Assembly (NCBI RefSeq): GCF_056746865.1
Contig: NZ_CM163382.1
Strand: one strand, 5' to 3'
Length of the DNA: 64,000 bases
In this document: positions 7,199 to 14,685 of the stretch, piece by piece
How positions within the stretch are numbered: the first letter of the stretch is position 1
How the letters are laid out: each line of letters begins with the position of its first letter
Position numbers and translations under genes: made by a program
Notes under the pieces: generated by a model
Told to the model about the DNA's origin: nothing
Database searches by the model: none
What the model saw: the letters and a program-made list of their open reading frames with translations, nothing else

Positions 7199-7313
7199 TG
7201 ATGCCCTCACCCCGACCCTCTCCCACAGGGAGAGGGAGAAAACCAGCGCTGATTTTAACACCGTGCTCGATCGGTTCCCTCGCCCCTTTGGGGAGAGGGG
7301 TAGGGGGAGGGGA
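7199..7313. repeat. G/C-rich nested-palindrome repeat element, copy 1
   Basis: CCCTCACCCCGACCCTCTCCCACAGGGAGAGGG ... CCCCTTTGGGGAGAGGGGTAGGGGGAGGGG, with the same architecture and flanks (GTGCGnnCTGATG) as the copy at 14561..14685. Confidence 0.7.
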
Positions 7314-7332
7314 AAAGCGCGCACAGAGCGAC

Positions 7333-8301
7333 TCACGTCAGCAGCGAAAACGCTGAAAGCAGCGGCTCTGCCGCACATAACGACTGAATTTGCTGGCGAA
7401 TCGACGCAGCATTTTCACTCTCTCGCCAGCGTTCAAACACCGCAAAAAGGGCGAAAATATCCTCCTGTCGCAGCGGTGAACCATCCAGCGTCCATAAACT
7501 GATTAACGTGCGGATAAGATAAAAATCGCACACCAGCGGGCAATAATCTGCTCCGTCTGCCTGCCCAATCACCTCATGGTAAACGCGGTAAATCAGCCAG
7601 TTACGCATCATCCAGGGCGCGGTAGCAAAATGCTGTTGCCAGGTGGTTTGCCACTGTGCCTGAAGCTGATGTTGTAACAGGGCTTCGCTGTTGGCGTCAT
7701 GTAGCGCCAGCAAAGGCATCTGCAACGGCAGCGAAGTTTTGCGCGGGCTTTCCGGCAAAATCGACCAGTCAAACGCACAACTGCCGAGCAGCGTCATCAA
7801 CTGGCGCGCCAGTTGTGGCACGGGCGGCAACTGGGCGAACTGTGCCTGTAGCGTGCCTTTTTTCGCATGATCGGCCAGCGCCTGCGGCAGCGTCGTCAAA
7901 CGGGCAAGAATATCTCCGTCTCTGCCCGGCATTTTACTGGCGCGGGAGAGTAAAATCCCGATGGCATACAGGGAAAGCTCTGGGGTTAAATCGGGGAGCG
8001 TGAGGGTACTCAAAATCACCTGGTTTACTATCGCATCGCGCGCGGAAAGCTCTGCGGCATTTTCTTCCACAGGACGGTAGGTGAGCTGTAAATCAAAGGC
8101 CCTGGCATCGTTGAGTACCGCTTCGCAGCTGGCTGGCTCTGTCAGCATCAGGCTCTGGCGAATCTCGTTTTTCCACACCTTGCGGATGTACAAAGGCGAA
8201 TCGGGATATTGCGTCATAAAATTGCGCACGTATTCCGGTTCGTAACATTCAATAAAACTCATAGGTGGCTTCCAGTCTTTATTACTTTGCGGAATATGCA
8301 A
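7333..8301 (-). CDS. Hypothetical protein (322 aa) at the end of the lfgA-lfgM-lfgN gene string
   Basis: Long ORF co-oriented with lfgN and ending just upstream of the glycosyltransferase gene. I recognise no motif. Confidence 0.5.
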   Translation of the reverse strand: MHIPQSNKDWKPPMSFIECYEPEYVRNFMTQYPDSPLYIRKVWKNEIRQSLMLTEPASCEAVLNDARAFDLQLTYRPVEENAAELSARDAIVNQVILSTLTLPDLTPELSLYAIGILLSRASKMPGRDGDILARLTTLPQALADHAKKGTLQAQFAQLPPVPQLARQLMTLLGSCAFDWSILPESPRKTSLPLQMPLLALHDANSEALLQHQLQAQWQTTWQQHFATAPWMMRNWLIYRVYHEVIGQADGADYCPLVCDFYLIRTLISLWTLDGSPLRQEDIFALFAVFERWRESENAASIRQQIQSLCAAEPLLSAFSLLT

Positions 8302-8388
8302 TAAGCGTGCCGGGAATTTTTATAATCAAAAACAAAGGATTGTGAATCAGGCGGAAAATCCGTTTCCGCTATGGGGAAGGTGTTCGCG

Positions 8389-8817
8389 TTATTCCTGATA
8401 CAGAAAATCTGCTTCGTTGCCTAAAAACGACTGGATAAATTCATACTGGCGAATCAACAGATCACCGTTTTTGTCGTTGTAGGTTTTGCAGCGTTCCGCT
8501 TTTTGCTCAAGGCGTTGCCACAACTGTTGTGCTGCCGCTTTTTGTACCGCCGGAAGCCAGGCAAACACCTGCGCCAGACCGTCACGATTTACGCTAACAC
8601 CGAGCATTTTCAGCAGGCTATGCCGCTGATGGCTATGTCCATGCAACTGCTCATAGTGATGGGTTATCTCATCGTTTACCGCCAGCAACTCTTCGCTGGC
8701 GCGGCGAATCATGCAGATCCGCTGACGTTGGAGAAGTTCGCGCAGGGAATCATACAGCGCGTCGTCGTCACGAATTCCCTGCAACAACGCCTTCACCTGT
8801 TGTAACCGGATACTCAC
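8389..8817 (-). CDS. lfgN: Flagellar export chaperone FlgN-like
   Basis: 142 aa, helical, in the flgA-flgM-flgN position. Confidence 0.65.
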   Translation of the reverse strand: MSIRLQQVKALLQGIRDDDALYDSLRELLQRQRICMIRRASEELLAVNDEITHHYEQLHGHSHQRHSLLKMLGVSVNRDGLAQVFAWLPAVQKAAAQQLWQRLEQKAERCKTYNDKNGDLLIRQYEFIQSFLGNEADFLYQE

Positions 8818-8829
8818 TTCATCGGCCTC

Positions 8830-9108
8830 TTAGTTCTGGAAAAAACTCAGCATATCGCTGGCTAACTGTTCGGTGTCCACTTGCAGGCTGCCGGAGGCCA
8901 GCATCGCCTGCATTTGCGCCACTTTATCGCTGTCGATATCGCTCTCTTGCTGGTCGTTCAGTGTTTGCTGGGCAGACTGCAATCCCGCCTGGGTAATGTC
9001 GTCGGCGCTTAGCGTCGTGGCGGTGGTCGCCGTGCTTTTGCGCGACTGGCTGGAGCCTGCCGTTGTGGCTGTCGGGCGATTGCCTGGCATAGTCGGGGTG
9101 ATTTTCAT
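8830..9108 (-). CDS. lfgM: Anti-sigma-28 factor FlgM-like
   Basis: 92 aa with a Ser/Thr-rich disordered N-terminus and a conserved FlgM-like C-terminal helix, lying between flgA and flgN homologs. Confidence 0.7.
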   Translation of the reverse strand: MKITPTMPGNRPTATTAGSSQSRKSTATTATTLSADDITQAGLQSAQQTLNDQQESDIDSDKVAQMQAMLASGSLQVDTEQLASDMLSFFQN

Positions 9109-9147
9109 CGCAACCTCGTCTCGGTATTTAGGTGGGTTACTCCAGTA

Positions 9148-12836: not shown

Positions 12837-13573
12837 TGGACCGTTTGATTTATACCGCCCTGAGCGGTGCTTCTCAGACCCTGTACGAGCAGCAGATCAG
12901 CGCCAACAACCTGGCGAACGTCAACACCAACGGTTTTCGCGCCGATATGGCAATGGCAACCAACGACAAGGTGAAAGGCGGCGGCTTCGACACGCGCTAT
13001 ATGGCGCAGGAAGGGGCCAGCGGCGTGAACGACAGCACAGGTGTTGCGGAGAAAACCGAACGCCCGCTGGACGTGGCGATTCAGGGCGCGGGTTACATTG
13101 CGGTGCAGGATAAAAACGGCAACGAAGTCTATACCCGCAACGGCAACATTCAGCAGGATGACCAGGGGCAACTGACCATCGACGGCAATCTGGTGCTGGG
13201 GGATAACGGCCCGATCATTCTGCCGCCGAACGCCATTGCTTCGTTTGGCAGCGACGGCACGCTGTCGGTGACGCCCGATGACGGCGACGTGACTGCAACC
13301 ATGGATATCGACCGCCTGAAGCTGGTGGATATTCCTGTCGCTAACCTGGCGAAAAATCCTGAAGGGATGCTGATAACTGCCGACGGCGTTCCGGCCCAGC
13401 GCGATGAAAATATCAAAGTCAGTGGCGGTTTTCTCGAAGGCAGCAACGTCTCGGCGGTGAGCGAGATGATGTCGTCCATCGCCATGAACCGCCAGTTTGA
13501 AGCGCAGATCAAGATGATGAAAACCGCCGAAGATATCAGCGACGCGGGCAACCGCTTATTGCGCGGCTCGTAA
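12836..13573 (+). CDS. lfgF: Flagellar proximal rod protein FlgF
   Basis: 245 aa with N-terminal ANNLANVNTNGFR. Confidence 0.85.
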   Translation: MDRLIYTALSGASQTLYEQQISANNLANVNTNGFRADMAMATNDKVKGGGFDTRYMAQEGASGVNDSTGVAEKTERPLDVAIQGAGYIAVQDKNGNEVYTRNGNIQQDDQGQLTIDGNLVLGDNGPIILPPNAIASFGSDGTLSVTPDDGDVTATMDIDRLKLVDIPVANLAKNPEGMLITADGVPAQRDENIKVSGGFLEGSNVSAVSEMMSSIAMNRQFEAQIKMMKTAEDISDAGNRLLRGS

Positions 13574-13579
13574 CCGCAC

Positions 13580-13720
13580 ATCGTAGGCCGGATAAGGCGT
13601 TCACGCCGCATCCGGCAGCTATGCGGTGGTGCCTGATGCGACGCTTTGCGTCTTATCAGGCCTACAAGCCTGTGCCCAAACCGTAGGCCGGATAAGGCGT
13701 TTACGCCGCATCCGGCAACC
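13580..13720. repeat. REP/BIME cluster (three REP units)
   Basis: GTAGGCCGGATAAGGCGTTCACGCCGCATCCGGCA occurs twice with an inverted GCCTGATGCGACGC...CTTATCAGGCCTAC unit between them. Confidence 0.85.
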
Positions 13721-13751
13721 GCGGCCGAAAAACAACACGGAATTTACCACC

Positions 13752-14537
13752 ATGAACGCAGCACTATGGATCAGCAAAACCGGCCTCTCGGCGCAGGATG
13801 CTGAAATGAGCGCGATTGCCAACAACATCGCCAACGTTAACACCACCGGCTTCAAGCGTGACCGGGTGATGTTTCAGGATCTGTTCTACCAGACCCAGGA
13901 AGCGCCGGGCGCGATGCTCGATCAGAACAACATCATGCCGACCGGGCTGCAATTCGGTAGCGGCGTGCGCATTGTCGGCACCCAGAAAACCTTCACCGAA
14001 GGCAACGTCGAAACCACCGACAACGCCATGAATGTCGCCATTATGGGGCAGGGGTTTTTGCAGGTGCAAAAGGCCAACGGCGATATCGCCTATACCCGCG
14101 ACGGCAACTTGCAGGTGAACGCCGACGGCGTACTGACCAACTCGCAGGGCTTGCCGTTGCAGCCGGAAATCGACGTTCCGGCGGGGGCGACCAACGTCGC
14201 GTTTGGCGAGGACGGCACGGTGACGGCGATCTTACCCGGCGACAGCGATGTGACCGAGTTAGGGCAACTGACACTGGTGAACTTCGCCAACCCAGCGGGG
14301 CTTTCTGCCGAGGGCGACAACCTGTATCTGGAAACCGCCGCCAGCGGTCAGCCGACCGAAGGTGTGCCGGGCGAAGATGGGCTTGGCACCTTGCAGGACA
14401 ACGCGCTCGAAGGCTCGAACGTGGATATCGTCAACGAAATGGTGGCGATGATTACGGTGCAACGCGCGTACGAGATGAACGCCAAAATGGTGTCGGCAGC
14501 GGACGATATGTTGCAGTACATCAGCCAGACGCTGTAA
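13752..14537 (+). CDS. lfgG: Flagellar distal rod protein FlgG
   Basis: The ATG at 13752 (MNAALWISKTGLSAQDA) gives ~261 aa. The upstream in-frame extension in the ORF track runs through the REP elements. Confidence 0.9.
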   Translation: MNAALWISKTGLSAQDAEMSAIANNIANVNTTGFKRDRVMFQDLFYQTQEAPGAMLDQNNIMPTGLQFGSGVRIVGTQKTFTEGNVETTDNAMNVAIMGQGFLQVQKANGDIAYTRDGNLQVNADGVLTNSQGLPLQPEIDVPAGATNVAFGEDGTVTAILPGDSDVTELGQLTLVNFANPAGLSAEGDNLYLETAASGQPTEGVPGEDGLGTLQDNALEGSNVDIVNEMVAMITVQRAYEMNAKMVSAADDMLQYISQTL

Positions 14538-14560
14538 GGGAGTGGGGGCAACGTGCGGTC

Positions 14561-14685
14561 TGATGCCCTCACCCCGGCCCTCTCCCACAGGGAGAGGGGG
14601 AAAAGCGGTGCACGATGTAACAACGCGCACAGGTCAGTCCCCTCTCCCTTGAGGGAGAGGGTTAGGGTGAGGGGGAACAAACAGC
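14561..14685. repeat. G/C-rich nested-palindrome repeat element, copy 2
   Basis: CCCTCACCCCGGCCCTCTCCCACAGGGAGAGGG ... CCCCTCTCCCTTGAGGGAGAGGGTTAGGGTGAGGG. Two inverted arms, each itself a hairpin, closely similar to the element at 7199..7313. Confidence 0.7.

Follow-up and report, generated by a model that had tools for sequence, protein, structure and literature searches.

Two G/C-rich nested palindromes in the Flag-2 island of Escherichia coli, identified by sequence as head-to-head pairs of the BoxC repeat

The locus and its two palindromic elements

The DNA considered here, the window, is a stretch of 64,000 nucleotides from contig NZ_CM163382.1 (NCBI RefSeq assembly GCF_056746865.1). 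It is Escherichia coli DNA. In a BLAST comparison positions 6000-16000 were 100% identical to several complete genomes including that of strain 118UI, the annotation of which is used throughout. The first ~30 kb of the window are the Flag-2 lateral-flagellar island with fliF-J-like genes, flgN/M/A, flgB-L-like genes and lafA-U; dinB, yafNOP and other genes follow. At least 80% of the 10-kb stretch 6000-16000 is present in ~995 of 5426 complete E. coli genomes, the Flag-2 genomes of this text. Two gaps between genes of the island are occupied by G/C-rich elements built from nested palindromes (Table 1). Element 1 is situated between the stop of a lysine-N-methylase-like gene and the start of a glycosyltransferase gene (site 1), element 2 between lfgG and lfgH (site 2). 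Judged by their sequence, both are ordinary copies of the BoxC repeat in a paired, inverted form.

An earlier, sequence-only reading of the window had described the elements as inverted arms separated by about 40 nt and located between convergent or tandem genes. The arms are indeed inverted and separated by 40 and 41 nt, respectively. The flanking genes are co-oriented, i.e., tandem, at both sites and convergent at neither.

Table 1. Positions of the two elements, of their parts and of the adjoining reading frames in the window
Feature	Position	Strand	Basis or remark
Composite element 1, head-to-head inverted BoxC pair	7190..7325		Inverted repeat with 51-nt arms, 71% complementary
Element 1 left unit, BoxC/TMECO type B, TCG second loop	7204..7236	minus	Exact TMECO pattern match
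Element 1 spacer, 40 nt	7237..7276		Flanks AGAAAACC and GTGCTCGATCGGT common to K-12 BoxC copies
Element 1 right unit, type A 'A mm' (one stem mismatch), slightly decayed	7277..7311	plus	Exact TMECO pattern match
Composite element 2, head-to-head inverted BoxC pair, lfgG-lfgH gap	14555..14690		Inverted-repeat search, annotation, folds
Element 2 left unit, BoxC/TMECO type B, CCG second loop, CCCTCTCCCTGTGGGAGAGGGCCGGGGTGAGGG	14566..14598	minus	Exact TMECO pattern match
Element 2 spacer, 41 nt, apex of long hairpin	14599..14639		RNA fold
Element 2 right unit, type A, TTA second loop, CCCTCTCCCTTGAGGGAGAGGGTTAGGGTGAGGG	14640..14673	plus	Exact TMECO pattern match
Glycosyltransferase gene	4684-7155	minus	118UI annotation
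Lysine-N-methylase-like hypothetical gene	7334-8263	minus	118UI annotation
lfgG (annotated flgG)	13753-14538	plus	118UI annotation
lfgH (annotated flgH)	14745-15410	plus	118UI annotation
Mechanical open reading frames entering or crossing the BoxC pairs	4683-7226 (-), 7176-7502 (+), 14259-14630 (-), 14348-14692 (-)		Open reading frame list

The left arm of element 1 reads CCCTCACCCCGACCCTCTCCCACAGGGAGAGGG, which as a minus-strand unit is CCCTCTCCCTGTGGGAGAGGGTCGGGGTGAGGG; the right arm is CCCTCGCCCCTTTGGGGAGAGGGGTAGGGGGAGGG. The composite includes outer inverted flanks, TGTGCGTGC...GCGCGCACA. The inverted repeat of element 2 has arms of 36 nt which are 75% complementary, and its spacer is in part alignable with the spacers of other head-to-head copies. 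That each arm is by itself a hairpin is true without reservation for three of the four arms, which form a perfect 9-10 bp stem (CCCTCTCCC/GGGAGAGGG); the fourth, the right arm of element 1, contains one mismatch. Two occurrences of the palindromic core CCCTCTCCC-N3-GGGAGAGGG were counted in the window compared to 0.00 expected from shuffles. In both pairs the order of blocks, read on either strand, is CCCTCACCC, CCCTCTCCC, GGGAGAGGG, spacer, CCCTCTCCC, GGGAGAGGG, GGGTGAGGG. When aligned against each other, elements 1 and 2 are 77% identical overall (106 of 138 columns) and their flanks are unrelated. An identity of only 77%, unrelated flanks and a genome-wide family (see below) rule out that the two copies are the product of a local duplication.

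A further small hairpin, GGCCACCCCCGTGGCC at 14706-14721, lies between element 2 and the ribosome-binding site of lfgH. It is confined to alleles with the BoxC pair and does not occur in REP-type alleles.

Identity of the repeat units

The repeat has acquired several names. In the account given in PMC4666352, BoxC was first named by Bergler in 1992; Hoyne and Maher later came upon it again and called it the potential intrastrand triplex (PIT) element; the PIT papers are Hoyne et al. (2000) and Hoyne and Maher (2002). Holder et al. (2015, PMC4666352) renamed it TMECO. The HPG1/HPG2 G-quadruplex-hairpin motif is the same repeat (Kaplan et al., 2016, PMC5100583). In older surveys BoxC figures as a 56-bp repeat with ~22-33 copies in K-12. 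Another keyword lead to 'boxC', PMC12844172 (a paper on HusR), was dropped; the word is not in its main text.

The published TMECO pattern is 5'-CCCTCNCCC-N3-6-GGGNGAGGG-N3-GGGNGAGGG-3' (Holder et al., 2015, PMC4666352). It is matched exactly four times in the 64 kb of the window, once in each arm, compared to 0 expected from shuffles. The units were then compared with the 23 copies of E. coli K-12 MG1655 which are compiled in Table 1 of PMC4666352. The left unit of element 2 is identical to K-12 TMECO nos. 1 and 4 (type B, CCG loop), the left unit of element 1 to no. 20 (type B, TCG loop). The right unit of element 2 equals no. 2 (type A, TTA loop) except for the optional last base. The right unit of element 1 corresponds to the commonest 'A mm' sequence (nos. 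7, 11 and 15) with two T-to-G changes: the second loop is GTA instead of TTA and the third block GGGGGAGGG instead of GGGTGAGGG. At site 1 of strain ATCC 8739 the right unit is the unmutated consensus with a TTA loop; relative to it the unit in the window is decayed. The unit flanks are common to the window copies and the K-12 copy at hrpB-mrcB.

The pairing of the units conforms to what is known from K-12. The second loop defines the types, TTA for type A and CCG and variants for type B, with TCG listed as B (Table 1 of PMC4666352, nos. 12 and 20). K-12 possesses five closely spaced inverted pairs, each of which combines one type-A with one type-B unit (Holder et al., PMC4666352). Both window pairs follow this rule, CCG + TTA in element 2 and TCG + GTA, a mutated TTA, in element 1. 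Clearly, this is the rediscovery of an already known repeat, and no new kind of element is added. The interpretation given by the sequence-only reading is supported in part; the BoxC/PIT/TMECO identity had escaped it.

Its statement that the elements are distinct from REP units was confirmed with Rfam. At gathering thresholds over the whole window no family covers either element. Even at E<=1 the surroundings of both elements returned nothing REP-like, only sub-threshold matches to eukaryotic microRNA precursors, as a generic long hairpin will produce. The sole REP-derived match in the window is naRNA4 (RF02564, 78 bits) at 13586-13662 on the plus strand, in the lfgF-lfgG gap. Thus, the flg operon of Flag-2 carries a REP element and a BoxC pair in consecutive gaps.

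The elements also generate spurious open reading frames on both strands, as had been pointed out from the sequence. The minus-strand translations contain the recurring peptides SLSLWERVGVRAS and PLSLWERAGVRAS, of the PLSLWER-GVRA type. None of the reading frames across the two elements is annotated as a gene in 118UI. A coding potential was rejected: the frames are unannotated and the recurrent peptides are repeat units read in frame. The frame which enters element 1 on the minus strand would wrongly lengthen the N-terminus of the glycosyltransferase by 24 codons (7226 instead of the annotated start at 7155). Annotation of BoxC pairs removes the PLSLWER..GVRA peptides and this false N-terminal extension alike.

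Folding and signals of transcription

The transcripts of both gaps are predicted to fold into very stable long hairpins, the outcome of a folding check which the sequence-only reading had suggested. For the lfgG-lfgH intergenic RNA a single long hairpin with -106.7 kcal/mol (z -5.5) is predicted. The sense RNA of site 1, i.e., the minus strand, reaches -79.6 kcal/mol (z -6.2). Folded as single-stranded DNA, element 1 has -40.9 kcal/mol (z -5.8) and element 2 -43.4 kcal/mol (z -6.9). In nearest-neighbour DNA folding single units form a 9-bp hairpin in which the third G-block is left unpaired.

Each site has a strong stem-loop, rich in G/C, right behind a stop codon, which immediately brings to mind an intrinsic terminator or attenuator which separates transcription units in the flagellar locus. 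This was one of the roles considered in the sequence-only reading, and for copies inside operons it has been speculated upon in print (Kaplan et al., PMC5100583). In element 1 the sense strand of the spacer has, in addition, a weak 7-bp hairpin (7263-7244, minus) followed by GUUUUCU. Yet, folds and terminator scans of both sites show no U-tract after either long hairpin, and for the sense strand of element 2 the terminator scan reported nothing. Further, element 2 lies between the co-oriented genes lfgG and lfgH, and no promoter-like site follows it; a sigma-70-like promoter was predicted at neither site. According to the summary in PMC4666352, the reporter tests of Hoyne and Maher (2002) revealed neither promoter nor terminator activity. 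A terminator function is, therefore, the least likely of all explanations and highly improbable.

Alleles at the same sites in other strains

Inspection of the same intergenic sites in related strains, another check suggested from the sequence, uncovered a presence/absence polymorphism at both. Site 1 is filled with the pair in 746 of the ~995 Flag-2 genomes, site 2 in 192. In sequence type 131 (ST131) strains, e.g., EC958, site 1 is a short, divergent intergenic region devoid of BoxC with a small GCCGG...CCGGC hairpin. At site 2 the alternatives are one REP (Ec15103, AR_0128) or two REPs (WP8-S18-CRE-02). XH988 and S1-KEN-04-A have at site 2 a BoxC pair with a 65-bp internal tandem duplication which comprises the spacer and one block. 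This looks like slippage or recombination between repeated blocks. An apparent 923-bp insertion in related genomes resulted from the joining of BLAST pieces and is not real; the genes are laid out as in the window.

Head-to-head composites are also found at rhaA-rhaD, at cpxA-yiiM, at phnK-phnL of other strains and at lldD-trmL of K-12. Those at rhaA-rhaD, phnK-phnL and lldD-trmL are located between co-oriented genes just like both window copies. At rhaA-rhaD the pair (788 genomes) has a REP as its immediate neighbour; REPs are present there in varying number, in the other genomes as REP/BIME arrays. At phnK-phnL 546 genomes carry the BoxC pair and the K-12-like majority a BIME of two REPs; the boundaries of both alleles are identical, at the stop codon and at the ribosome-binding site. 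At cpxA-yiiM, where the genes are convergent, 161 genomes have the pair, and the others a BIME with two or three REPs. Alignments of the REP alleles with the BoxC pair at lfgG-lfgH, phnK-phnL and cpxA-yiiM show no sequence similarity.

These shared slots are relevant for a further explanation, i.e., that the pairs are selected devices at the RNA level. They might protect the upstream cistron from 3'-to-5' exonucleases or provide an RNase III-type processing site and thereby set the expression ratio of operon neighbours, a role which certain REP elements have. The extreme stability of the transcript hairpins is in line with this suggestion as is the location of five composites between co-oriented genes. 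So is the fact that three of the slots hold REP or BIME in other strains, with REP beside the pair at rhaA-rhaD, and that even the ST131 allele of site 1 keeps a small hairpin. On the other hand, no experiment with BoxC supports such a device, and published surveys found no link of the repeat to gene function, distance or operon arrangement (PMC4666352). Slot sharing may reflect nothing but slots tolerant of insertions, many strains manage with quite different occupants, and the cpxA-yiiM copy is between convergent genes. We consider an RNA device doubtful, yet the prospect is to be taken seriously.

The outer flanks, GTGCG..CTGAT and GGGGAAAA..CGCAC, are conserved across five loci, and the spacers at rhaA-rhaD, cpxA-yiiM and phnK-phnL measure 40-59 nt. 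All three block pairings over long range are perfect in the copies at rhaA-rhaD and cpxA-yiiM, and each local hairpin there has a mismatch. Perfect long-range pairing in spite of local mismatches implies that the arms of these copies are exact inverted copies of each other. At the five loci examined neither a clean empty site nor a target-site duplication was found, and the rhaA-rhaD junctions are ambiguous. Neither can be delimited, since the alternative alleles have the intergenic segment exchanged in its entirety.

TMECO loci have been reported to be more variable than control intergenic sites (PMC4666352). The variability between strains seen here was observed at BoxC sites themselves, i.e., at both Flag-2 sites and at rhaA-rhaD, phnK-phnL and cpxA-yiiM. 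Might the repeats be structural switches at the level of DNA, i.e., intrastrand triplex, G-quadruplex or cruciform, which regulate nearby transcription or replication or generate local variation? All four units obey the sequence rule for a purine-motif triplex, and the G-rich strand is a canonical G3-N3-G3-N3-G3-N3-G3 tract. Isolated G-strand oligonucleotides form a stable triplex in vitro (PMC4666352), and hairpin and G-quadruplex interconvert in vitro (PMC5100583). The variability of both Flag-2 sites including the slippage-type 65-bp duplication is of the kind reported for TMECO loci. However, the triplex was undetected in spectroscopy of double-stranded DNA and in dimethyl sulphate (DMS) footprinting in vivo (PMC4666352). 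As summarised in the same paper, Hoyne and Maher (2002) observed no in vivo effect on replication, transcription/polymerases or conjugation. Moreover, ordinary recombination and slippage predict variability around repeats as well. A DNA-level switch appears very unlikely to us.

Dispersal of the family

A genome-wide search for the motif, likewise suggested from the sequence, exposed a dispersed family. With element 2 as a query blastn returned 54,931 places. They are distributed over 4993 of 5426 complete E. coli genomes; the median number per genome is 11, the highest 24. The family is present in nearly all E. coli genomes and, hence, the element is not unique to the two Flag-2 sites. Only 52 of the 54,931 places are on plasmid replicons of those assemblies. 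Matches were present in 374 of the 72,556 records of a separate plasmid collection; very large replicons of Klebsiella, Enterobacter, Citrobacter, Azospirillum, Aeromonas and others account for many of these. In a phage collection 5 of 50,697 records match, all of them partially. By record counts carriage by phages or plasmids is negligible and was dismissed.

Holder et al. (PMC4666352) counted 3610 copies in 262 proteobacterial genomes and none in Salmonella; within Enterobacter their copy numbers extend from above 140 to below 30. A scan of species-representative genomes with the exact 33-nt core yielded at least 120 loci. Among the matches listed the core is multi-copy in Polaromonas, Archangium, Candidatus Contendobacter and unclassified metagenome-assembled genomes (MAGs). 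With E. coli these distant taxa have in common only the ~33-nt core, and the flanks differ; the Archangium copies are essentially without conserved flanks. Core pairs in both orientations are among the Polaromonas matches listed. In MAG GL140 the core is part of a ~105-nt repeat with no conserved adjacent gene; many of its core copies are at contig ends.

Dispersal of this kind suggests mobility, and the sequence-only reading had mentioned a miniature mobile element. A transposase acting in trans would then move the paired element, and each of the two Flag-2 copies would go back to an insertion of its own. The arms are similar to terminal inverted repeats and have outer flanks conserved across five loci, the family is dispersed and multi-copy, and its presence is strain-dependent at every site examined. 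The arms at rhaA-rhaD and cpxA-yiiM are exact inverted copies despite mismatches in the local hairpins, and the core is multi-copy in distant phyla. Against mobility stand the lack of a clean empty site or a target-site duplication, with alternative alleles that replace the whole intergenic segment, and the near absence from phages and rarity on plasmids. No partner transposase is known, and the ~105-nt repeat of MAG GL140 does not point to one. Further, most copies are assignable to the same loci across 56 strains (Holder et al., PMC4666352), which indicates little recent movement. On balance, we hold mobilisation of the paired element to be plausible but unlikely.

Finally, BoxC inverted pairs and REP/BIME might be interchangeable occupants of the same slots. 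Either a strong structured element would be selected there, i.e., a module for RNA stability or processing, or a structure-directed insertion pathway would be common to both families. This idea is based on REP/BIME alternatives at three slots and on the REP beside the pair at rhaA-rhaD, together with the conservation of a bare 33-nt core across distant phyla. We consider it decidedly unlikely.

What the pairs may do

The window elements are head-to-head BoxC pairs and, probably, non-coding, transcribed-through passenger repeats. This is the best-supported combination of the literature and the present results. BoxC pairs would be non-autonomous passengers which are transcribed within the operons on either side and take the shape of a single, very long and stable hairpin. 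Transcription would pass through the pairs rather than end there. The main demonstrable consequence would be local instability, i.e., decay, slippage duplications and replacement of whole intergenic segments. Any effect on expression would most likely be exerted at the level of RNA, where the pair would either block 3'-exonucleases in the manner of REP or offer a double-stranded site for processing. Hairpin stability, positions between co-oriented genes and the slots common with REP point in this direction. By analogy with REP we treat such a role as a tentative possibility of appreciable weight, well short of an even chance. The DNA triplex and G-quadruplex forms observed in vitro would probably be at most transient in the cell.

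Several observations do not fit comfortably with mere passengers. REP or BIME alleles are in the same slots at three sites and beside the pair at a fourth, rhaA-rhaD; this sharing could mean that selection favours a structured element in these slots. Within unrelated flanks the 33-nt core is conserved in Polaromonas, Archangium, Ca. Contendobacter and unclassified MAGs. Core conservation in such distant taxa is not easily explained by pure neutrality and hints that the core is under selection or is mobilised by a conserved factor. Given the hairpin in the spacer of element 1 with its trailing GUUUUCU, some attenuation at site 1 is conceivable. Lastly, passenger repeats are a default explanation and not a demonstration: in the more than 30 years since BoxC was described, work on the repeat has not demonstrated a function.

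What is gained by the identification? Recognition of BoxC explains the differences between strains in intergenic length inside the Flag-2 island and flags likely trouble spots of assembly and alignment. The paired A+B configuration and the variability from strain to strain were already in print. The Flag-2, phn and cpxA-yiiM sites constitute a natural allelic series of BoxC pair, REP and BIME in which effects at the RNA level can be compared.

Other observations in the window

A gene for a toxin of the RelE/ParE family and a helix-turn-helix partner gene (20390-21040) are located inside the Flag-2 island between the flgL-like and lafA regions. In the identical 118UI record the toxin gene yafO of the yafNO pair (~31133-31531) is annotated as a pseudogene; it has an internal stop. 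At ~51941-53154 paoA is disrupted by an IS3-like ISEc31 element. An Rfam match to isrC (51973-52095) falls within the end of this insertion sequence and thus probably marks the insertion sequence and not a separate small RNA gene.

Comparison with known systems

With bacterial miniature inverted-repeat transposable elements (MITEs; ERIC/IRU, NEMIS/Correia of Neisseria, YPAL of Yersinia) the pairs share a length of ~100-150 bp, inverted-repeat ends, co-transcription and long RNA hairpins. They differ in that neither a target-site duplication nor a parent insertion sequence nor an integration host factor (IHF) site was found for BoxC. Further, the BoxC unit is a module of 33-56 nt which also occurs singly.

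REP/BIME elements (PU) resemble the pairs in arrangement. These too are short, G/C-rich, palindromic intergenic repeats, often in inverted pairs, transcribed within operons and variable between strains. At lfgG-lfgH, phnK-phnL and cpxA-yiiM they occupy the identical slots in different strains. Bachellier and co-workers are said to have noted (Genetics, 1997) that boxC insertions are associated with BIME regions. In sequence the two families are unrelated. A GTAG-type head is lacking in BoxC, the REP-derived Rfam model does not match it, and the REP consensus palindrome of the GCCGGATGCGGCG...CGCCTTATCCGGCCTAC type is absent from both elements. The third G-rich block endows BoxC with a potential for triplex and G-quadruplex formation, unlike REP. 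RAYT, the transposase associated with REP, is not known to have BoxC among its substrates.

From the BoxC copies of K-12 the window copies differ in minor points only. Of the five K-12 pairs that at lldD-trmL has the head-to-head arrangement and the other four are tail-to-tail, to go by the coordinates in Table 1 of PMC4666352. In the window both pairs are of the head-to-head kind, with CCCTCACCC...GGGTGAGGG as outer blocks and 40-41 nt of spacer. They reside in the Flag-2 island, which is absent from K-12, and the right unit of element 1 has two decay substitutions. Common to them and BoxC/PIT/TMECO/HPG1-HPG2 are the three-block core with some units identical, the A/B loop types, the inverted A+B pairing, the intergenic location, the dispersed multi-copy distribution and the variability from strain to strain.

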